A stretch of DNA of 64,000 bases from Octopus vulgaris (lineage: Eukaryota). The notes under the pieces were generated by a model. That model was not told where the DNA came from. It was given only the letters and a program-made list of their open reading frames with translations, and searched no databases. The translations under genes were made by a program, and so were the position numbers. The DNA is taken from contig OX597828.1 of the NCBI GenBank assembly GCA_951406725.2, forward strand, positions 76,136,001 to 76,200,000. Reading direction: 5' to 3'. Numbering within the stretch: the stretch's first letter is position 1; each line of letters starts with the position of its first letter. Below, piece after piece: positions 10,579-58,610 of the stretch.

Positions 10579-10626
10579 AAAACCTGTTACTCTGAGTTTC
10601 ACGTTCCCGTTCGTCAGACAGTTTTT
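10579..10626 (-). ncRNA. Type I hammerhead ribozyme (canonical core) in a ~90-bp insert within (TA)n
   Basis: Minus strand reads aaaaactgt-CTGACGA-acg(ggaa)cgt-GAAA-ct(cag)ag-TA-acaggtttt. Stem I is ctgt/acag (plus aaaa/tttt), stem II is acg/cgt and stem III is act/agt. The CUGANGA and GAAA boxes and a GUA cleavage triplet are all present. Folded by eye. Confidence 0.85.
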
Positions 10627-10642
10627 GCTAGAATATATATAT

Positions 10643-10986
10643 AGTAAAGTAAAGACCCCCTTCGGTCATGAATGACCATGGGATTGCACCTAGAAAGTTA
10701 CCCTCCTAGACACAAGTCCGGACAAGGTTGTTTATGGAAGACCAGCAGTCGCCCATGCATACCAGCCTCCCCTCTCCACGCCACCAGTGTTATCCAAGGG
10801 AAAGACAAAGGTCGATACCGCTTGGCACCAGTGACGTCGCAACTCATTTCTACAGCTGAGTGAACTGGAGCAACGTGAAATAAAGTGCCTTGCTCAAGAA
10901 CATAACACGCAGCCCGGTCCGGGATTCGAGCTCACAACATCACGATCGTAAGCTCGACGCTCTAACCACTGAGCCATGCGTCTTCA
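10643..10986 (-). mobile_element. tRNA-derived SINE family C (Meta/MESC-like core)
   Basis: Minus strand has A-box tggctcagtggttagagc, B-box-like gagctcgaatccc, core gttcttgagcaaggcactttatttcacgttgctccagttcactcagctgt, and a (TTTAC) tail. Confidence 0.8.
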
Positions 10987-13059: not shown

Positions 13060-14148
13060 TCCTTAAATCTTTAAATCCTTAAAAATGTTTTAACCCGAAT
13101 GCCACGGCTATGCTGGGGCACCACCGTTGAATGAGCTACACTAATATGTGAATCCACCTCTGATACGTGGCACTTGATCAACAAGGGAGTTCGATGCTGC
13201 TGCCCGCATCTGCGTCTCCTGTCGTGAGGTAGGTTCATCTGAGACCCCCGACAAGAAGAAATCCAATTTAGTTTTAAAGAAACCCACATCCACAACATGC
13301 AAGTCTCTCAGGCATTTAGGGAGGATGTTAAAGAGCTGTGGTCCTCTGAAACCCAAGCTGTTGCAGTATCTGGTCCTGTATTTTGATGGTGATGTTGGAA
13401 TCTTTGGCACCATGCAGTGGCGCTCCGTTCTGCGGTTGGGGTAACTTTGAATGCCAAAGTTTAGGACAAGACCTTTCAGGATTTTCCAGATGTATATCAC
13501 CGCATATCTCTCCCGCCTTCGCTCTAGGGAGAAGAGTTTTAATACTTTCAGTCTTTCCCAGTAGCTGATATATTGCATTGAGACGATCTTCTTTGTGTAG
13601 CTTCTTTGAATTGCTTCGTGTTCTGCTGTTAGTTTTATATTGTGTGGTGACCATAGTTGGGAGCAGTAGGCCAAGCGGCTGAGGACGAAAGTTTTCCAGA
13701 GGACCATCAGTGTCTCCTTCTCTCTTGTTCTGAAAGTTCGGAGAATCCATCCAGCTAGCCGTCTGCATTTTATCACCAGATTAGTAATATGCACTTGGAA
13801 AGATGCATCATTGCTCATGTCAATGCCCAGGTGACGCACTGATTTTGACTCAGGGATTGCAATTCTTCCCGGGCCATTGTATCCAGTCTGCATGTCGTTT
13901 ACCTTTGAGTGCCTGTAGCGCAGGGCCTGGAACTTACCTGCGTTAAACTGCACGTTGTTGTCCTCAGCACACCTGTATATTGTATCCAACTCCTGTTGCA
14001 GATGCGCAATATTTTCAGGGTTTTGTATTGCGTGGGAGACTTTTGTGTCATCTGCATAGCTAGCAAGGGTGGCCATCTTAGCAACTGAGGGCATGTCTGA
14101 AATTGCCACTATGAACAGTAGTGGCCTCAAGACAGTGCCCTGTGGAAC
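13060..14148 (-). mobile_element. 5'-truncated CR1-like LINE; uninterrupted RT C-terminal frame 13141-14148
   Basis: ORF has VPQGTVLRPLLF, YADDTK, QFNAGKF, LERRRER and FKTKLDFFL motifs. The 3' UTR has a stem-loop and a short-repeat tail. The first residues of the predicted ORF are only (TATG)n translation. Confidence 0.92.
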
Positions 14149-14157
14149 ATACATACA

Positions 14158-14209
<52 letters not shown>

Positions 14210-15157
14210 TGTTTAAGTGTATGTGAGAGTATACAAGCCTATGAAGATGCGTCAACAGGCGTATGTTAATGTGACTACAGGTATATATAGATATATACGT
14301 AAGACTGTTTACATATGTGTGTGCCGATGTATACATAGCAATATACCCTGGATTGTGTGATTCTGTCGGTGTGAGTACGTACACGAGCGTGTCAAGTCCG
14401 AATTCATGAGTGCACAAGTACTGTAAATATGTCAGCCAGATGAAGTGGAACGCACCACAGAATTTATGACTCGTCAACAACAGGTATCATATCACTGGCC
14501 GGTACTAGATACCGGAGTTATTAATACCCGCTTCATTCTTTGTACGAGAGCATGTGCACCAGACCACGCTTGTGTGTGTGCTTGCATGTGAATGTCCGTT
14601 TGTACGATCGAGTGCATGTGCACCAGACCATGTATATGTGACCGTTTGTATATCCATATCTACTAACGGTTGTGCGTAATCATATTTTCTCTGTATTGTG
14701 TATTTATTTCTTTTTCTATCTCATATTTTTTTAATGTATCTCCTATAAGAATGAAGCGTGTTCGTTTATTTGCTCTTTTCTATATACGAAGACAAAGAAG
14801 ACAACGTCCCGCGCCAAGTTGTGCGTCACAGAGATTATTTTAACGAGATGCCTCTCGAAATCACTTGCGGAAACACATCTACACCGAGTGATACATCTAA
14901 ACCGGTTGTACAATATCCTATCCTCGAGGGATCGATACTAGATGGGTCAAAGCAATTGTAGTAATCAATCATCTTCCGAACACACTAAGACAGGGAACGT
15001 CTTCATTGGCAAACTACCAGGTGTATACCATACGATTTATCAAATACTAAGTATATATATATATATATATATATATTTGTAAAAAAATGAAGTTCGAAAA
15101 TGCTGCTGTATTATACAATTTTTAATTTTTATATATACATTATAACATGTTTCAGTT

Positions 15158-24183: not shown

Positions 24184-25012
24184 TTGGGCTGGCAACTACA
24201 TTCCCGCCGTTTTTTAAAATTAATTTTTTTAAGGGTTAATAAAGAACAACAACTAATTAATCAACAATGTATTCACCCGTGTTGTTTAAAACATCTTCCC
24301 GACATTCAACAAGATTTTCAATACCTCGTTGGTAGAAATCATCCAATTTCGACTCGAAAAGTTGATCCAACCAAGCTCTCAATTCTGCATCAGTATTGAA
24401 CGAAGCTCTGCGCATATCATTTGAAAGAGATTGAAAGAAGTGGAAATCCGTTGGTGCCAAATCAGGAGAGTACGCGGGTGTGGCAGCACTTCCCAGCCAT
24501 GCGTTTGAATGGCTTCCTTGGTCATATTGGCAATATGAGGGCGGGCGTTGTCGTGCAGCAGAAGAACCCCATGCTGACGATTAGGTCTTTTCTCTTGAAC
24601 TGCCGCGCTGAGTCGTTCCATCTGTTGAACATCTGTTGAGTTCCGCGTTGACCTTTTGGTTCCGTTCAAGAAATTCGTAATGGATAATCTCTTCCCAGTC
24701 CCACCATACGCAGAACATCGTTTTAGATGAAGACCTTGTTTCAGGCCCGCTTTTGTTCGGTTTCACGTAGGTTTTGTGGCCTTAGAACCATAATTAAAAG
24801 CAAAAAGGTGTCGAAAATGCTGGTTTTTCTAAACTTGACATTCCTTTTTAATGATCTGAAAATAACCAAAAATTAACTAAAACTAATTAGAAAAAATTTA
24901 TATTCCAAAATTATTCAAAAATAGATTTTTCGAAAAAATAGATTCTACAATTTAAAAACTCAATAAATTCCAAAATTAAAAAAATCGGCGGGAACTTAGT
25001 TGCCAACCCTAA
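24184..25012 (-). mobile_element. Internally deleted mariner DNA transposon with TIRs and TA target duplication
   Basis: Left TA-ttgggctggcaactacattcccgccg matches the reverse complement of right cggcgggaacttagttgccaaccctaa-TA. Minus frames give KTMFCVWWD, LLHDNARPH, WEVLPHP and APTDFHFF (mariner catalytic motifs). The N-terminal half is missing. Confidence 0.92.
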
Positions 25013-32129: not shown

Positions 32130-34160
32130 ATCTTTATTTATATCTAGTTTCAGCTCACAAGCTGTGGCCATGCTGGGGCACCGCCATTTGGTGTTGCTAC
32201 ATGATTTTACTTCACGAATGCTTTTTAGCAATTGCCATTTTGTGCATGAGAGAGTTCGATGCAGCTGCCCTCATCTGCATATCCTGCCGTGAAGTTGGTT
32301 CATCTGGGACACCTGACAAGAAGAGATCCAGTTTTATTTTAAAGACATCTGCATCCACCCCGTGCAGGTCTCTTAGGTTCTTCGGGAGGATATTGAAGAG
32401 CTGTGGGCCTCGGAAGCCCAGGCTATTACAGTATCTTGTCCTACATCTTGATGGCAAATTTGGAGTCCTTGGCACTGTGCAGTGGCGCCCAGTTCTGGCA
32501 TTTGTACAACTCTCGATGCCAAAGTTTGGGACAAGTCCTTCTAGGATCTTCCAGATGTATATTATGGCATATCTTTCTCGCCTACGCTCCAAGGAATAGA
32601 GTTTTAATCTCTTGAGTCTTTCCCAGTAGCTTATATGCTACACAGAGGCTATCTTCTTCATGTAGCTTCTTTGGATCGCCTCAAGTTCTGTAATTATCTT
32701 GACACTGGATGGTGACCATCGCTGAGAGCAATAGTCAAAGTGGCTTAGGACAAGTGTCCTCCAGAGGACCATCATGGTTTCCTGGTCTCTTATTCGAAAG
32801 GTTCTAAGAATCCATCCGGTCAGCCGCCTACATTTCATTGCCAATTTAGCAACATGCAGATGAAAGGTTGCATCATCAGTCATGTAAATACTCAGGTCTC
32901 GCACTGATTGTGCCTCTGGGATTGCAATCCATCCAGGTCCAGTGTATTTATTGGGTATTGCATTTAGTTTTGCATGCTGATAGCATAAAGCTTGAAACTT
33001 TTCAGCATTGAACTGCATGCTTTTCTTTTCATCCCACTTGTATATTTTGTCCAGCTAACTTTGCAGGTGCTTAGTGTCTTCAGGGTTCTGTATTGCCTGT
33101 GAAACTTTTGTATCATCTGCATAACTTGTGATCGTGGCTCTCTGCGTGGCTGAGGGCATGTCTGAGAGGGCCATTATGAACAGTAGTGGTCCCAAAACAG
33201 TGCCTTGCGGAACACCGCTCACTATTTGCGTGTTAATGGAAGTGGCTACTACCACCTGACTTCTATCCTTCAGAAAGTCATGAAGCCATTCTCCCAAGTT
33301 TCCAACTATGTTGAGATCACGCAGTTTGTGACATATCATTCCATGATCGACTTTATCAAAGGCCTTTGCAAAGTCGAGATATATGACTTCCACATTTTAG
33401 TGGTTGAGCAGTCGTTTCTGCACCCAGTTATAGTGTTGTAGGAGCTGAGTTAAGCAGCTTCTTCCTGGTCGGAAACCGTGTTGGGTGTCAGGCAGCAAGT
33501 CATTTTCTTCAAGGAGGGTGATTAGTTTCCTTCTGACTATTCGTTCCATGACCTTGCTGATATGTGAGGTCAGAGAGATAGGTCTGTAGTTCTTGGCCTC
33601 CGCTCTGCTACCTCCTTTATGAATAGGGCATATTTTACCTTCCTTCAGTTTTCTTGGGAGTTTACCAGTTGCAAAGAAGCTCTGAAAGAGGAACTGCAGT
33701 GGTCTTGCTAGGACTCTCTTACTTACTTTTAGAAGGATTGCTGGGAATCCATCGGGGCCAGTAGCTGAGTCTGTTTTCATTTCATCTATAGCCTTTATTA
33801 CATCGTCTTCCTTTATATTGATGTAATCAATCATCGCTGCCTCTGATTTTATATCTGCAGTGGTAAATAAGTCAGTTGGATTGCTGACTTGAAAATGCCC
33901 TAGGGGTGGAATGAAAATACTCTTAAATTCATCATTTAGTATTTCACTTACCCTCATTGGATTTCCTGTGAGTGTGCCATCCTTTTCAAAGAGTGGCCCT
34001 ATCCTACAGTGCACTGTAGCTGTTTCTTTGGCATACCTGTAAAAAGCTCTGAGGTTAGATTTTTTGTTGTCTATAGCCCAGGCTTCTTTGTCTGCTCTTT
34101 CTTTTTCATGGGAGAGTTGCAGACATTTTTCAATTTCCAACAGTTTTATTTTCAGGCAGG
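32130..34160 (-). mobile_element. 5'-truncated CR1-like LINE ORF2 (RT), frameshifted
   Basis: Four consecutive minus ORFs (33397-34140, 33055-33393, 32638-33018, 32212-32592) carry GPDG, NYRPISLTS, QHGFRPGRSC, YLDFAKAFDKVDH, GVPQGTVLGPLLF, YADD and ERRRER. It belongs to the same group as 13060-14148. Confidence 0.93.
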
Positions 34161-34186
34161 ACTCTTCACTTCCTGAAAATGTATAT

Positions 34187-34460
34187 ATTTTCTACAACAA
34201 ACGTGCTGCCCCACCCCTCACTCTCTCTGTCTCTCTCGATTGTTCATCTTTTCTACAAGCGTGTCTGTCCCCATATATGCTGTCTCCCCTGTCTCCGAAT
34301 TGAATACATTTTTTACGACAGTCTCCGCCTCACAGATATGCTCTCTTTTTTCAAGATTGTGTACATTTACTAAAAACGCCTCCGTCCCACAGTCACCCTA
34401 TTTCCTCTCTCTCTCAATTGAAAACGTTTACAACAACTGTTCTTCTCCCGCAGACGAACC
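34187..34460. repeat. Degenerate ~55-60 bp minisatellite, ~4.5 units
   Basis: Recurring ttt(c)tacaa..gt(c/g)..(c/t)gtccc(c)a..ctctct..attg pattern at about 34187, 34249, 34311, 34367 and 34427. Confidence 0.5.
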
Positions 34461-43636: not shown

Positions 43637-45353
43637 GATTTATGTCAGTAGTAAAGTGGGAGTGGTTGGTGGACAGTAAAGGGACGATGGTTTCCGGTAG
43701 ACATATTCTGTACCATATGGAGGACCCTTACTCATTAATCTCCTGCTTACAAGGAGTTATGAAGACGAGGAACAAATTACTGGTTTGTGGGTGCGCGCGT
43801 GTGTTTTTGTCATTTTCTATCCGAGAAGATATAAATATGAGGAAGAAAAGCATAAAATATGGCACTTTACACATAAAATAGATTATAATGAGAAGATGCA
43901 TCCTTATTACTCAAGCCGATACACGCACACACACACACACTGATATACACAGCGAAGGTTTCGTTAGACCAATGTCAACATGTAAATAAATAACAATGCT
44001 GTTGTTTACTAATGACTATACGATAAAAGCACCTTGCTAACAACAACCATATCAAACAGTACCATCCCAAGTCAGAACCTGTTCTATTACGTTCCGGTAA
44101 CAAATCTCACCTGCGAAGACTATCAGACCTACGTTTGGAGACCATTATACTGAAATATTTCTCGCAAAATTTAAAGTGAGCCAAGCAACAAATGTCTACG
44201 AGGTGGATCAATAGGCAAGAAATCACAGTAATGTCTCCTTCACATATTTCCGTATCTTCAGTCTCATATAAGCAAAAATACGGAATGTTCATAATTGAAA
44301 TGACTTTGATGAGAAGCCCACTCACTAAGGGATAAGCTGGGGCTGTACAACCTCATCACGAGTTCAAATTTCAGCGGTGTCGTCTTAGTTTTCTAGAATC
44401 TAAGACAATGGCTGACCTAACAGTACCGAATGTTGATAGTTTCACAACAGAATTAGAAATTCCTCTGTCAGAATTAATAAATCATTGATTAATTATCTCC
44501 CAAGAGAGCTTGAATCGTAATTGGTATAAAACTGTAATGGGTAGGTGATGCTTTGTCTGAAATACGTTGAATAGCTATCAATTATCGTATCCTTACTTAA
44601 GAAATAGATCATTCAACAATATGGCTGCGTAGGTGAGGAAATGGGGATTCATGGGAGATGCTTAATCGTTTTTTATATGTTTAAGCACCAAAGAATGCGA
44701 CGTTTTTATTTCAATTTAATAATAAACGAATATAAATTACATATATATAAATAATTTATGTATATATATGAAGCAAAACATCAGAAACTGGAAAAATAAT
44801 AGTTTTGGTTTATCTCTGTTCTCAAATATTGGTTACGATATAATAGTTACACACGAAAGGTAAATACTTACGCATGCGCATACGCATGTAGTATACGTAT
44901 ATAACATACACACATATATGTGTATGCATATGTGTTGTGTGCGTTTGTGTGTGTTTGTGTGTTGTGTGTGTGTGTAGTCAAATAGAGAGGATGTACTCTG
45001 AAAATATGAGTAACGAGGATGCTGTAAATCTCAATCCTACATTTCTTGCTACTGTTTAGTGTGTATATTATTCATGCACGCACGCACGCGTGTACACACA
45101 TAGAGCGTGTATAAATATATACACACAAGCTATATATCGACGCACCGATTTAGGGGCCTGGTAGATTTGCGGATCCAACAAGTAACGAATAGTATTGCTT
45201 AAAACAAACACTACTTGCTGAAAAAGCAAGGAGACGATATGTATTGAAGTCATGGATGGAACGGCAGAGAACATAAACTCTTTTTTTCTCATCAGAACAT
45301 CCAAGAAAAAACAATTTATTAAAGATCATACGTAAGATAGGAACTTTCACTAA

Positions 45354-45403
<50 letters not shown>

Positions 45404-45471
45404 CCTTCTGTCTCGTTCATTCTCTCTATCTTTCTTTCTTGCTCACTCTCTCTGTCTCTGTCTGTCTCTCG

Positions 45472-45520
<49 letters not shown>

Positions 45521-45917
45521 AAGAGAAGAGGTTATTGAATGCATGAAATCTGGGCAAAAAGGCAGGGGAGACAAATCTGCATAATGAACAACGGAAGTGG
45601 TTGCACTATATTCAAAGTCCAGCGTACAAGAACCAGTGCAAGACATGTGGAACTGAAGGAATTGAATCTAATCCTTCATTCTAGACAAGGGTGACATCAG
45701 AACAGATGATTCCATCTTGTTAAGACTTTTCAGCGATTGAAGGAGTTTAGCATGTATATTAGGTCTATAGTAAAAGAAATAAGTGTACAACTGTAATCTA
45801 ATGAATATGAGTTGGCGAGACATTAAAGCATGGGGAGGGGGAAAATTTCCCATTGACAAACGACACCAGTTGTTTATATAACAGCGTACACACACACAAA
45901 ACACACACATAAAAGTA

Positions 45918-46687
45918 CAGGCTGCGATAGGTAAATTGTCGCCATTTTATATTTTTAATCTCGCGCATGCCCATTGTCGCGCATGCCCATAGTAGGGTGG
46001 ATTGGACACTTTCTGTGAGAAAAGCAGCACCGTGACGCAAATCGTTTGGACAGAAATTAGAAGCCGACATGCTGCTGCTGCTGCTTGGCATTCTCGCCGG
46101 AAGCTCCAATACGAACATTTCAGAGTGTTTGAGTGTCAATCTGAGGACATGTACTGAGAGTGATAAAAATCAAACACCCAGTCAACATCATGGTGATGGC
46201 GACGTTATGCCACCATTCATCTTAACCATACGGCCTGGAAGAGGTAGTACTGCCCTGGGTAAAGTGGGTGGCTGATAGAAGACCCTATGTCTTGCAAATA
46301 GGATTCTGCACCAGGTCACAGAAGCAGGAGAACCCAGTAATGGGTATCAGACAATTTCTGCGACCACATCAGACAACAACCCTATTGATTATTATGTGTG
46401 GGGGCGCAGTTGAGCGAGAGACCAACAAAACTCTTTGTTACACCAAAGATGAACCGAAGGCAAAGATTACGGCTGCATTCACCAACTTAAACAAGGTGAC
46501 CGTCCAGCAGAGTTGCGGGAGATTCCGATGTCGTCTGGAGGTCATGGTTGAGGCCAATGGCGAATTTATTCAATAAATTTACTCTTTAGAATTTCAAGAT
46601 AATCTTCTGTAAATATATCTGTTAAAATGAGATGTCAGTACTATTTTCATTTTTGCGTACTTTAGACCACAGTTTATTCACAGCACC

Positions 46688-46690
<3 letters not shown>
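45918..46690 (+). mobile_element. Internally deleted Tc1/mariner-superfamily element (maT/DD37D-like)
   Basis: TA-caggctgcgataggtaaattgt at the left and acagtttattcacagcaccctg-TA at the right form imperfect TIRs. Fragments read IKHPVNIMV, GDVMPPFI, DSAPGH, NPIDYYVWG and SCGRFRCRLEVMVEANGEFI. Confidence 0.8.
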
Positions 46691-46764
<74 letters not shown>

Positions 46765-46882
46765 TTAGAGATAAAACCACTATTAGGCAAATCATACAAT
46801 GAAAAACTTAAGCCAATACATAAGATTAATTAATTTATATTATTTAAATATATAACAAAATTATTTAAAAAATAATTAATAT

Positions 46883-46950
46883 AACACTACAATCGTTTCA
46901 TGGCTGTTAATTTCTTTAAAATTTCGAGTTACAGTCATTCTTCAGGTGGT
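46883..46950 (-). ncRNA. Type I hammerhead ribozyme motif, left arm of palindrome
   Basis: Minus strand reads accac-CTGAAGA-atgactgt...acagccat-GAAA-cgattg-TA-gtgtt. It is a mirror copy of the plus-strand motif with a differing 3' side of stem II. Confidence 0.65.
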
Positions 46951-46962
46951 TTAAATATTTAA

Positions 46963-47029
46963 ACCACCTGAAGAATGACTGTAACTCGAAATTTTAAGAA
47001 TTGGACAACCATGAAACGATCGTAGTGTT
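46963..47029 (+). ncRNA. Type I hammerhead ribozyme motif, right arm of palindrome
   Basis: accac-CTGAAGA-atgactgt...acaaccat-GAAA-cgatcg-TA-gtgtt. Stem I is cac/gtg, stem II is long and imperfect (atg/cat closing), and stem III is palindromic CGATCG. Predicted cleavage is after GUA at 47024. Confidence 0.7.
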
Positions 47030-47237
47030 ATATTAATTATCTTTTTTAATAATTTTGATATATATTTAAATAATATAAATTAAATAATCTTATGTATTGG
47101 CTTAAGTTTTTCATTGTATGATTTGCCTAATAGTGGTTTTATCTCTAATTTAATATAATCTAATATTTTACTATAAAATTGGATTCAATCCTAAATTTGA
47201 TTTTTCCTTGTAAGTTTGGATTTATTCCCTAATATTT

Positions 47238-47283
<46 letters not shown>

Positions 47284-47473
47284 CTATATATATATGTATA
47301 TATATATATACTTATATGCATACATGCATATATAAAAATGTATATATACTTGTATATACATGTGTGTATGTGCGTGTGCGCATGCGTATGAATCGCTCAT
47401 TTCTATATAGAACTAAAATCGATAGAAATGCCAGAAAATATAAATATATGCTGAATAATGTAAAACAAATTGT

Positions 47474-47511
<38 letters not shown>

Positions 47512-47561
47512 ATGCATGTGAACCTATATACGTAAATGTATATACTCCATAGAATTACTAT

Positions 47562-47651
<90 letters not shown>

Positions 47652-48060
47652 TATATATATATACATATGTGTGTGTGTTTGTGTCTGTGTATTTGTGTGT
47701 GTATATGTGTATGTGAGCGTGTGTGTGTGTATGACTATATAAATATATAAACATATTGAAAGCTGCCGGTCTATTCACATTGGTATTATATATATATCTG
47801 TATTGATTAAGAAGACTGTGAGTGAGTAAAACTCGCATATTCCGTTATGCATCCACACCTACTCACACAGACACACACTAACACACATGCACTCCAGCGT
47901 GCGTACATTACTAATATATAATACCATTATATATACCAGACATTACTAAATGGGGTATTTATCTGCCCTTTGCGATGGAAAAAAGTCTTCTATGTAACTC
48001 TATGTAAACAATACATTAAAAGTCGAACACCCAACTATATGATAAGTCATTTCTGTATGC

Positions 48061-48105
<45 letters not shown>

Positions 48106-48163
48106 CGTACATATACATATATATTAAATATATATATATGTATACAATGTTTAAATATGTATG

Positions 48164-48226
<63 letters not shown>

Positions 48227-48238
48227 ATATATATATGC

Positions 48239-48387
<149 letters not shown>

Positions 48388-48393
48388 TATGTA

Positions 48394-48424
<31 letters not shown>

Positions 48425-49849
48425 TTATATTTATACTTATATTTATATATTCTGAATCCATTCACTCATATTTATATTTTAGAAACATATCTACGCGTGC
48501 TACTACATAACTTATTTCGAATATGTTAATATTTATTATGACGAAGATAACCAGAGGGAATGAGCTAATATTTAATTCTCTTCCCTTAACAATATCCTGC
48601 ATTCAAACACACATCTATATCCGCAATATAGACATATATGTATATATACGCATTTAAGCGCACAAACACTCGCACGCGCGCACACACATGTGTACATATA
48701 TATATATATTTATATACACATCCACATGTATATATTCCAATATGTAATGTGTTCTTGCTGTATCCTATATTTTAATAACTTTATTGAACGTATCCATTAT
48801 TGAGTTTTGTTAATACTGGAAAGAAATATGTCTCACATAGACACACATACACACACACATACACACACACACACACATACACACACACACACACAAGCAC
48901 GTGCACAAAGACTCTCTCTCTCTCACACACACACACATAAATATATATATTTTTTTCTTTTCACATATGTTTACCTCCCGAGCTATACTGCTAGTGTAAG
49001 TATATACCAGTATTTCAAACACTCCCTGTATATTAGCTCCATTATATATGCTTATAGTAATCGGTGAGGTTACGTTATACATAAATCGAAAAGGAAAATG
49101 TTGTTAGTCGCGTTTCAGGTCGATATCATTGTTATTTGTAGCACAGGTTTGTGAGGCTCCATTTGTCTAGTCAGAAATACGTAGTAATTCTCCGAAAACT
49201 GGCTAAGCTTGTTGTTGTTGGTGGTGTTTAGCGTTTCTACCCTCATCATTTCAACTATAAATAAAGAGAACTGTAGTATTCCATGTATTTTTTTTGTAAG
49301 ACATCGTGTAGCGTTTCTAATTGGATTTGGTTTTTGTTTCTAGCGAATTAGACAACCAGGTACACAGAAACGCCCCTCGTTTTATTTGGTGTTCAACATT
49401 TCCGCCCTCACCATTTCGACTAGTTTCCATTGTATGTAAGACGGACTGCACTACTCCCTGGACAATTTTTAATAAAGAAGTGCTTTGGGATTTGAATGGT
49501 TGTTGTTTCTTGCGAGTCAAACAAACAAGTTGACAGAATTCTCTCGATTTATTTGCAGGTAACATTTACCAATAAGCGGGATTACATTGATCAGCGAGGA
49601 ATCTAAATACTTATACGGTAATATTCAATATTGTTTTGCATAGAGAAATCTGTGGCAATGTCTGTCTGCTGTAACTGCTTGCTTCTTCGTCACGTTGTTT
49701 ACCACTTTTCCTATCACGGGAGTCATTCGTGACTCACCACGCCATATTCTTTATCACATCATAGGAATCACCGTTGACATCAAACTGTGATGATCTTTTC
49801 TTTATGGAGTCGCACAAAATTGTGGTTCAAACTAAATTATTTCCTTAGC

Positions 49850-50016
49850 GAATAATTTCGTCTTGCCTAACGTTTAAGTTCATTTACAGCCGGAATCGAC
49901 TGTTGCCTTTCGTCCTTTCAGGGTCGATAAAATAAGTACCAGCCGAGAACTGAAGTCGATGTAATAGACTTACCGCACCTTCACCGAAATTCCTGGACTT
50001 GTTCCAAAATTTCAAA
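49850..50016 (+). mobile_element. SINE family A copy, 5' decayed
   Basis: tcgactgttgcctttcgtcctttcagggtcgataaaataagtaccag. Confidence 0.7.
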
Positions 50017-55318: not shown

Positions 55319-56211
55319 ATCGATGGAGTAGTTTCTCCATGGCGCAAGCCTGGGCGATAGAATATACATATATATATATATATATATATATGTACGAACG
55401 CAGAGAGAGAGAGAGTGGGGAAAGAGAGGGAGACAGAGAGAGGTGATCATACATATTTCCCATAATTGATTATTAGCTAAACGCGTCTATTGTTTTACTC
55501 CATAGACTTGTCTCATCATCCAAATGATTTATAATTTCATAATTGTTGAGAAATTTTGGTGAAAGCTATCCTGCGATGATTAATTATAGTGTAACCTATG
55601 GAATATATAACTTGCGTGAGCATGTATATATATATATATATATATATACATATATCCATCCACACACCACTCCATATATACATATATATAATGCAATTTC
55701 CTTTTTGCAGGCACGCGTGTGAGTGTAGACGTGCAAATCTTTAGGGATTTTAAATGAGTTAATGATGAATGGAAAAGTGTAGCATAAGATCTGCAGATAG
55801 CGGTGAGGTTGACATTAATGATGTTGTTTGGTGGAAAATGAGAGAAAGAGAGAGAGAGAGAAAGAATATAGAGAGAAATAGAAGAGAGAGAGAGAGAGTG
55901 GCAGAGTGGGGTACGTGATATAGTATAATCTCAGCGTGTCACGATGACATGGAAGGAATCCCGGAAGAACTAGGTGTTAGGGTTATAGTTCACTTCCTTG
56001 ATAGATGTAAATATTTATTCAGCCATTATAGATAGTTATCAAATAATGAATTACTTGTGACATAAATCCGAATTCTCCAGGGAATATTGGCTTTTCATGA
56101 TATGTCATCTGCACTCATTTTATATTCATGATGATCATTTCGCTTCTCTTGCATCAATCACACAACCTTCCACTTCCACCTCTTCCACTTCCACCATATT
56201 ATTTACCTCCT

Positions 56212-56424
56212 CCCTCTCTTCTTCTTCTTCTTCTTCTTCTTCTTCTTCTTCTTCTTCTTCTTCTTCTTCTTCTTCTTCTTCCTACTTCTTGTCTTCTCCT
56301 TCCTCTTCTTCTTCCTCCTCCTCCTCCTCCTCCTCCTCCTCCTCCTCCTCTTTTTAACGCTGACACTTTGAAATACATCCTCTTCAGCTTCTCTTAGTTT
56401 CCTTATTCACTCTCTCTCTTTCTA

Positions 56425-56476
<52 letters not shown>

Positions 56477-56836
56477 CCTTCCATTTGCTCATTTTTTTTC
56501 TCATCTTCTTTCTGTGTCAGCCATATTTATCCTTACCTGCTTATATACATCTGAATTGTCATAATTTACAACACACGCAAACACACACACGCGCGCATGC
56601 AAACACACACACACGCACACACACACACACACGCACACGCACACTCGCACACACACATGCACTCACACACACACACACACGGGTTTCTAAACTTAGGTTC
56701 ACAAACAAGAACAATCATTAATTTGTCCATTCTGAACGATATATATGTGTGTGTGTGTGTGTGTGTGCCTCCGTGTGTGTGTAATATACACATATACATA
56801 TAGGTTTGTGTGTGTGTGCGAGTGTTATGTGTGTAT

Positions 56837-56874
<38 letters not shown>

Positions 56875-57980
56875 TATATATCATATATAAGCACATGTAT
56901 GTAAATATATATATATACAACCTTCTCTACAGTATTGCTTTTAAATGTTAGCAAACAACCCGGAATCTCAGGATAGGGACTATGTGAATTACGTCTACTG
57001 AAGGGCTGTACTGGTACTTAATTTGTCGACCCCGAAAAGTTGGAAGGTGAAGTTGGCCTCGGCGGAATTTGAACTCAAAACGCGGAAGATTGACGAAATG
57101 CTACGAAGCATTTTGCATGGCGAGCTAACAATTCTGCCACCTCGTCGCATTTTGATTTTGAATTTCAGTACAAGGTCAGCAGGTTCGGAGGAGGAAGGAG
57201 TTGATCAGATCGACCCCAGTGCTCAACTGGTCCTCAGTTTATCTGATCCGAAATGATGAAAGGCAAAGTCGACCTCGGAGGAACTAGAACCCAGAACGCG
57301 AAATATGAACGGAATGTCGCTAAGCATTCTACCCGGCGTGCTAACGACTCCGACATCTTGCCGCGTTATATGATGATATTAATGACATTACTTCGCGAGC
57401 GGCGATAATGAGGAAGCACGGCAATCCCTTCACTGATTATATAAACCAATCATTCATTGAACGATCCCCCCTCTCTTCTTCTTCTTCTTCTTCTTCTTCT
57501 TCTTCTTCTTCCTCCTCCTCCTCATTTTAACGCTCACACTTTGAAATACATCCTCTTCAGCTTCTCTTAGTTTCCTTATTCACTCTCTCTCTTTCTATTT
57601 CTATCTTTCTCTCTCTCTCTCTCTCTTTCTCCCTTCCATTTGCTATCTTTTTTCTCATCTTCTTTCTGTGTCAGCCATATTTATCCTTACCTGCTTATAT
57701 ACATCTGAATTGTCATAATTTACAACACACGCAAACACACACACGCGCGCATGCAAACACACACACACGCACACACACACACGCACACGCACACTCGCAC
57801 ACACACATGCACTCACACACACACACACGGGTTTCTAAACTTAGGTTCACAAACAAGAACAATCATTAATTTGTCCATTCTGAACGATATATATGTGTGT
57901 GTGTGTGTGTGCCTCCGTGTGTGTGTAATATACACATATACATATAGGTTTGTGTGTGTGTGCGAGTGTTATGTGTGTAT

Positions 57981-58018
<38 letters not shown>

Positions 58019-58610
58019 TATATATCATATATAAGCACATGTATGTAAATATATATATATACAACCTTCTCTACAGTATTACTTTTAAATGTTAGCAAAC
58101 AACCCGGAATCTCAGGATAGGGACTATGTGAATTACGTCTACTGAAGGGCTGTACTGGTACTTAATTTGTCGACCCCGAAAAGTTGGAAGGTGAAGTTGG
58201 CCTCGGCGGAATATGAACTCAAAACGCGGAAGATTGACGAAATGCTACGAAGCATTTTGCATGGCGAGCTAACAATTCTGCCACCTCGTCGCATTTTGAT
58301 TTTGAATTTCAGTACAAGGTCAGCAGGTTCGGAGGAGGAAGGAGTTGATCAGATCGACCCCAGTGCTCAACTGGTCCTCAGTTTATCTGATCCGGAAATG
58401 ATGAAAGGCAAAGTCGACCTCGGAGGAACTAGAACCCAGAACGCGAAATATGAACGGAATGTCGCTAAGCATTCTACCCGGCGTGCTAACGACTCCGACA
58501 TCTTGCCGCGTTATATGATGATATTAATGACATTACTTCGCGAGCGGCGATAATGAGGAAGCACGGCAATCCCTTCACTGATTATATAAACCAATCATTC
58601 ATTGAACGAT
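56212..58610. repeat. Tandem duplication, two copies (56212-57465 and 57466-58610)
   Basis: Both copies start in a ccctctcttcttc (CTT)n/(CCT)n tract and end at ccaatcattcattgaacgat. Unique parts are nearly identical, with a few substitutions and indels. Confidence 0.95.
56950..57365 (-). mobile_element. Two tandem SINE family A copies (repeated again at ~58093-58510 by the duplication)
   Basis: ctggtacttaatttgtcgaccccgaaaag..ttggcctcggcggaatttgaactc and tcgaccccagtgctcaactgg..aaaggcaaagtcgacctcgg. Confidence 0.75.

Follow-up and report, generated by a model that had tools for sequence, protein, structure and literature searches.

A spacerless head-to-head pair of pLTR-like copies with opposed hammerhead motifs in Octopus vulgaris, very probably a truncated insertion of the Penelope-like type

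The stretch of DNA analysed here, referred to as the window, comprises 64,000 nucleotides of the Octopus vulgaris contig OX597828.1 and contains an inverted repeat without any spacer. Its two arms, a left one at 46757-46956 on the minus strand and a right one at 46957-47156 on the plus strand, are 200 nt each, abut at 46956/46957 and are 95% identical over 201 columns (E 2e-87, alignment within the window). The inner 41 bp form a perfect palindrome, the sole one of that size in complex sequence of the 64-kb window, the outer 72 bp of both arms are identical, and all 10 differences between the arms lie between the right-arm positions 46995/6 and 47084. A preliminary description of this DNA had reported spacerless arms of about 200 bp meeting at this very point, with about 40 inner and 70 outer bp matching exactly and some ten differences between them, all of which is borne out by the alignment. 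It had also bounded the element by (TA)n on both sides. This holds on the left, where the microsatellite of the target flank (46691-46760) touches the arm directly and merges with its 3' end, but not on the right, where about 83 nt (47157-47239) precede the (TA)n-rich target flank at 47241-47348. Besides the two arms, no further copy of the arm was found within the 64-kb window, and the repeat search across the whole window was dominated by microsatellites. The left (TA)n flank of the palindrome is directly adjoined by what presumably is a remnant of a Tc1/mariner-like transposase (about 46226-46690, with an open reading frame at 46226-46576).

Elsewhere in the window, two decayed fragments of a LINE-type reverse transcriptase, by eye of one family, are located at 32212-34191 and 13141-14238, both on the minus strand. 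What we take to be a mariner-like transposase remnant with broken frames is found at 24257-24762 (minus strand), and regions of about 56100-57250 and 57480-58400 form a local duplication, about 1.1-1.2 kb apart, with similar translated frames and near-identical motif contexts at 56387/57560 and 57237/58381.

Each arm of the palindrome carries the motif of a type I hammerhead. On the plus strand (46965-47027), it consists of stem I CAC/GTG, the box CTGAAGA (46968-46974), GAAA (47013-47016) and helix III ACGATCGT, with a predicted cut after 47024; on the minus strand (46885-46948), CTGAAGA reads from 46945, helix III is ACGATTGT and the predicted cut follows 46888. Both motifs have a 3-bp helix I, a helix II region of 38-39 nt opening with ATG/CAT, a palindromic helix III and a GTA cleavage triplet, and both satisfy the type I core (CUGANGA, GAAA, UH) with helices I-III able to pair. 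When a type I hammerhead descriptor was run on all 28 CTGANGA motifs of the window, three of them matched, namely those of the two arms and an unrelated one at 10584-10621, compared to none in 60 block-wise dinucleotide shuffles used as control. The sites agree with those that the preliminary description had proposed on each strand, including both cut sites. The check by Rfam that it had suggested turned out differently, as no hammerhead family matched at E<=1 in the region 44000-50000 or at E<=10 with the arm alone. Since Rfam was also silent on the unrelated motif at 10584-10621, this search looks insensitive to such compact motifs. The arm elements are termed hammerhead motifs here and not members of an Rfam family. 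Matches to miRNA families, of which mir-181 scored above the gathering score, were rejected, as they reflect merely the perfect central hairpin.

The compact motif at 10584-10621 lies on the minus strand and shows a 4-bp helix I, the box CTGACGA, a helix II with ACG/CGT and a GGAA loop, and a near-palindromic helix III, with a predicted cut after 10588 and (TA)n about 40 nt beyond. It is likely the solo stump of another PLE family. Directly upstream of this stump, at about 10650-10980 on the minus strand, there is a SINE-like element, whose motifs we assume to be of the tRNA-type A/B-box kind.

The arm hammerheads share with the minimal type I hammerheads of Penelope-like elements (PLEs), as described in PMC4209133, the intact core boxes, the short helix I, the long imperfect helix II, the palindromic helix III and a predicted dimer. 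They differ from them in the helix II region of 38-39 nt and in the closure of this helix, where the pair A10.1-U11.1 follows directly after A9 without an extra base between 9 and 10.1; the consensus given there, G10.1-C11.1 (called highly conserved) plus an extra base between 9 and 10.1, is thus not matched by the arms. Dual hammerheads on opposite strands are described in the same source for Schistosoma with a spacing of 100-700 bp, whereas the CTGAAGA boxes start just 23 nt apart in the locus analysed here. The arm hammerheads would be grouped with the PLE class by their predicted way of working, which they resemble, and are not filed under its consensus.

For PLE hammerheads, cleavage is reported to be inefficient and to require a dimer or other assistance (PMC4209133). 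For the arms, the predicted folds of a forced monomer hammerhead are weak (+2.2 and -0.2 kcal/mol), and the intermolecular duplex of helix III is predicted at -10.0 kcal/mol for right/right, -7.9 for right/left and -5.8 for left/left. For read-through RNA of either strand, the predicted fold of the whole palindrome is a long hairpin with 189-190 pairs (-255/-263 kcal/mol). Four pairs of the hammerhead were tested in this context; their predicted probability is 0.0, and it is no higher than 0.07 in an RNA started at the centre. Because of these probabilities, ribozyme activity at the locus is predicted to be low or nil, with the ribozyme expected to be hidden in the long hairpin of a read-through transcript. 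These predictions weaken the earlier proposal of a working ribozyme in the transcripts of both directions; long double-stranded RNA, which had been proposed along with it, is predicted on condition that the locus is transcribed. None of the 15 family-variable sites of the arm (see below) falls into the 25 core and helix I/III positions, a weak result (p about 0.13, calculated by hand) that we do not take as evidence of selection.

The family relations of the arms were assessed in public sequencing runs. The stretch is present in part in 20 of 24 listed runs from 10 studies and 4 organism labels, and the contigs of four of these 20 runs, one per organism label (X1, X2, X3 and X10), were analysed on 46918-47245 at 85% likeness. 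None of the 20 runs is on record as RNA, from which nothing follows for expression. There were 8829 matching contigs in 52.2 million records of X1 (about 76% of that run), and 1891 in 36.2 million, 2377 in 28.3 million and 554 in 14.2 million records of the others. The arms thus belong to a high-copy repeat family. In all four runs, the summed depth at 47127-47137 exceeded that at 46962-46972, by 30, 49, 75 and 56 times, with the reservation that summed contig depth does not equal copy number; this slope is the pattern expected from the 5' truncation of a retroelement.

Towards the 3' side, the family has two end points. The inner one, at about 47159, leads into (AT)n in 30, 21 and 15 contigs of X1, X2 and X3, respectively, and the outer one, at 47236/47237, in 14 contigs of X2 and 9+11 of X3; additional loose ends are located at 47154 and 47166 (all among the 24 of 332 loose ends listed). 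Of the two arms, the left one terminates at the inner point (about 47159) and the right one at the outer (about 47236). The segment 47157-47239, which is family sequence with a mean depth of 0.22-0.40 of the peak, is present on the right arm only, and since the left arm ends at the first and the right arm at the second family end point, it constitutes a one-sided family tail of about 80 nt on the plus strand. The 11-mer CTAATATTTTA is found at both 3' end points (47160-47170 and 47229-47239). Through its TAATAT part, both priming sites could have microhomology with (TA)n targets. Inside the tail, at 47210-47215, there is also a splice-donor-like GTAAGT; introns in the 5' UTR have been reported for PLEs (PMC8557442). 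(TA)n is present in both flanks of the locus and in the family loose ends, and a target-site duplication is unreadable inside such a microsatellite.

With regard to the differences between the arms, 19 variable family sites were listed at a threshold of 5% of depth, 15 of them in the arm. The right arm carries the majority family alleles at 47001-47004, and the left arm represents a minority haplotype in the loop and the 3' strand of helix II. At 47001, 47003 and 47004, the letters of the left arm account for 9-18% of depth in X2, X3 and X10 and for 0.4-2.7% in X1. In X10, those at 47001 and 47003 have the identical depth of 525.2 with two contigs each, and a 20-letter loose end behind 46997, among the loose ends listed, equals the left arm including its extra A. 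Based on these identical depths and this loose end, 4 of the 10 arm differences belong to one pre-existing minority haplotype of the family. A fifth difference, at 47084, is a common polymorphism with both letters frequent in the family (T 58-70%). At 47008, practically all family depth is G, so that the A of the right arm is private; on inspection of helix II, a C-G pair is lost through it. For 47021, 47041, 47047 and 47058, the states of the left arm are below the 5% listing threshold and may be private or part of the minority haplotype. The T at 46891 of the left arm had been considered as a private CpG change, which was dropped, as a minority haplotype could sit under the same threshold.

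The arms also have much in common. Of the 15 family-variable sites, 9 have the same letter in both, a minority A at 47118 being one of them; the crude chance of this agreement under independence is 0.4-2%. The 10 differences are confined to 89 of the 200 nt (p about 0.004). Judged by the family alleles at which they differ, the arms are not copies of one molecule that have since decayed at random. Since so many sites are shared and the differences are clustered, either the templates were closely related, for instance as the paired pLTRs of a single source locus, or a single template was copied and conversion followed later. The two arms were probably copied from two slightly different templates. 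The haplotype difference favours two-template priming or later gene conversion over pure snap-back, which is weakened by two arms bearing distinct alleles that were already present in the family. The preliminary description had left the choice between a snap-back and an inverted pLTR insertion: the latter is supported by the truncation gradient, the two end points, the one-sided tail, the (TA)n flanks and the native palindrome at the centre, and the former, in its pure form, loses ground to the distinct arm alleles.

The centre of the locus, 46951-46962, reads TTAAATATTTAA and is situated immediately 5' of the hammerhead. This 12-bp palindrome is the element's own, as family copies continue upstream of 46951 with other sequence. 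Such continuations were found in three contigs each of X3 and X10 among the loose ends listed, and two pieces (2 and 25) of the 32 listed pieces begin at 46951 after 15 and 281 differing upstream letters, respectively. The junction of the window lies exactly on the axis of this native palindrome. As DNA, the 12-mer is predicted to form a self-duplex of -8.6 kcal/mol and no hairpin of its own (0.0). The 30 upstream letters before 46951 do not match the end of the tail. One X1 record (depth 16) is also head-to-head, with 46962 joined to 46951 via 23 letters, which by eye are composed of 17 inverted upstream letters (16 of 17 matching) and 6 direct ones with an overlap of 2 letters. From its letters, this joint reads as another head-to-head insertion, whose asymmetric break is unlike that of the window's palindrome. 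Another strand-switch joint of X1, 46957/47042, is ambiguous in its geometry, as the reference stretch holds the mirror of that part, and the joints 47046/47119, 47072/47052 and 47179/47156 were excluded from the argument, as their orientation was not given.

Taken together, we consider it very probable that the locus is an inverted pLTR insertion of the PLE type, i.e. a truncated dead-end stump. It is the architecture that carries the assignment to PLEs, since no RT or GIY-YIG ORF was seen by eye in the ORF lists of the window, as expected for a stump, and no parent element was retrieved: exact 22-mer scans of metagenome contigs, viral contigs and prokaryote genomes gave no matches, as expected for an animal repeat. 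The repeats of Octopus vulgaris include Penelope-like elements according to the repeat sections of PMC13282606, in which hammerheads are not mentioned.

The head-to-head architecture of inverted pLTRs with a one-sided tail has already been published for PLEs, and the locus adds a case. Inverted 5'-truncated copies, tails and a bias for (TA)n are described for PLEs in PMC8557442 (with a scheme in the legend of its Fig. 2), and head-to-head inverted pLTRs, junction palindromes and a one-sided tail are reported for Pen2, Pen2a and Pen3a of Adineta vaga (PMC3846280). As in the EN+ PLEs of the latter organism, there is here a pLTR of about 200 nt, an inverted 5'-truncated copy in head-to-head orientation, a tail at one end and an AT-rich/(TA)n target, and the palindrome at the junction has its counterparts in a 15-bp overlap and in palindromes of 18 bp and 38 bp. 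Unlike in these elements, the arms are joined in perfect symmetry with no ORF in between and are of different haplotypes; the tail is about 80 nt compared to the 30-40 nt reported in PMC3846280. The different source haplotypes of the arms are a new detail with respect to known inverted pLTRs. Like the Poseidon PLE PAc of the green anole, as presented in PMC11167929, the locus combines a helix II starting with ATG, a tail defined by two 3' end points and an AT-rich target. It differs from PAc in that the ATG frame closes, after 16 codons in the right arm and 20 in the left, and in that the end points are at TAATAT-like sites and not at an AC-rich stem-loop.

PMC8557442 treats the formation of inverted pLTRs by PLEs as an unsolved question, and PMC3846280 explains it by self-priming on an antisense template. 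The protein of the anole PLE cuts and extends both target strands, is predicted to form a dimer and has two RT start sites that define the tail, and hammerhead cleavage is dispensable for its insertion in vitro (PMC11167929). Based on these reports and on the features of the locus, we propose the following course of events, for which, taken as a whole and including the two templates, we would give an even chance. By analogy to the anole enzyme in vitro, a PLE enzyme would nick both strands of the AT-rich target. One nick would then prime at the observed outer end point (about 47236) and yield a pLTR plus tail, and the other would prime at the observed inner end point (about 47159) of another pLTR copy and yield the pLTR only; the second template could come from a separate RNA or from the same tandem RNA, as its other pLTR. 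Both cDNAs would stop early, in line with the 5' truncation observed in the family. Their ends would carry the self-complementary TTAAATATTTAA, so that they could anneal and be sealed, leaving the zero spacer of the observed palindrome. The hammerheads would be passengers in this process: a dimer via helix III is their predicted requirement, and a read-through RNA is predicted to mask them.

In the twin priming of L1, both target strands prime, and the resulting inversion is joined by microhomology. The inverted piece of L1 is a different part of the RNA, whereas here both primers would copy the same repeated segment, which results in a palindrome. We raise as a tentative generalisation that twin priming on two pLTR templates, in place of self-priming, generates head-to-head PLE inversions: the two nicked target strands would each prime at one of the two RT start sites, and the cDNAs would be sealed via a self-complementary motif retained just upstream of the hammerhead. 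If true, the inverted orientation, the palindrome at the junction and the tail on one side would all follow from a single scheme. In the largely open-access literature searched, we found no mention of a two-template model for PLE inversions.

The closest competitor to this scheme retains the PLE-type insertion and has one template self-prime by folding back at the native palindrome, as put forward in PMC3846280; the arms would have been identical at first, with the middle of one of them overwritten later by gene conversion from a different copy of the family, in addition to point mutation. The position of the junction exactly on the palindrome axis speaks for it, as do the identical inner 41 and outer 72 bp, the 9 shared polymorphic letters and the restriction of the differences to one 89-nt tract. 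It needs the conversion as a second event, however, and the 12-mer on which it relies is without a predicted DNA hairpin (0.0 kcal/mol), yet anneals to a second copy at -8.6 kcal/mol. Moreover, a fold-back of the tailed cDNA alone leaves unexplained why the left arm stops at the inner family end point. We regard this course as possible, on the unlikely side. The preliminary description had also considered a non-autonomous fold-back element, MITE-like or a palindromic retroelement, which would exist as a fixed unit of 400-480 nt with the junction of the window. The perfect spacerless centre would suit such a unit, and the ambiguous strand-switch joint of X1 has a break at 46957 too, but the depth at the centre is 30-75-fold below that at the 3' end, copies continue one-way upstream of 46951, the other inverted joint breaks differently and there is no second arm copy elsewhere in the window. 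Family copies were not seen as whole palindromic units with a fixed centre. The proposal of a fold-back element is not supported by these results, and we deem it improbable.

It is still more doubtful that the locus is an inverted, truncated insertion of a non-LTR retrozyme, i.e. of a tandem hammerhead satellite that borrows PLE proteins. Retrozymes are reported to be non-coding, PLE-derived and provided with type I hammerheads (bioRxiv 10.64898/2026.07.22.740005), which agrees with the dimer-type helix III of the arms, their high copy number and the lack of an ORF beyond the 16 and 20 codons from the helix II ATG. According to the same preprint, they are arranged as tandem arrays, head-to-tail, whereas we found an inverted pair only, with no further arm copy in the window, and as the letters upstream of 46951 are unlike the end of the tail, a monomer would have to exceed the analysed stretch. 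As for an artefact of the assembly from a fold-back (chimeric) long read, there is not one among the pieces listed (32 of 13,708) that crosses the exact junction to the left of 46951, which would suit such an artefact. On the other hand, BLAST found no mirroring of the flanks (about 930 nt compared from each side), and several of the 10 arm differences are genuine alleles of the family. Moreover, just one side bears a tail, and the locus ends at family end points on both sides. A chimera is unlikely because of the unmirrored flanks and the position of the outer ends, and we allow it barely any probability.

The locus itself is ordinary for PLE-rich genomes; what makes it of interest is the mechanism of insertion. 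Arms with different source haplotypes discriminate between one-template and two-template models of inverted pLTR formation, and many such junctions might be obtained from a family of this abundance, which occurs in runs under 4 organism labels. Where stumps of this kind lie in transcribed regions, they would give rise to a near-perfect double-stranded RNA of 190 bp, a possible substrate of editing or RNAi.
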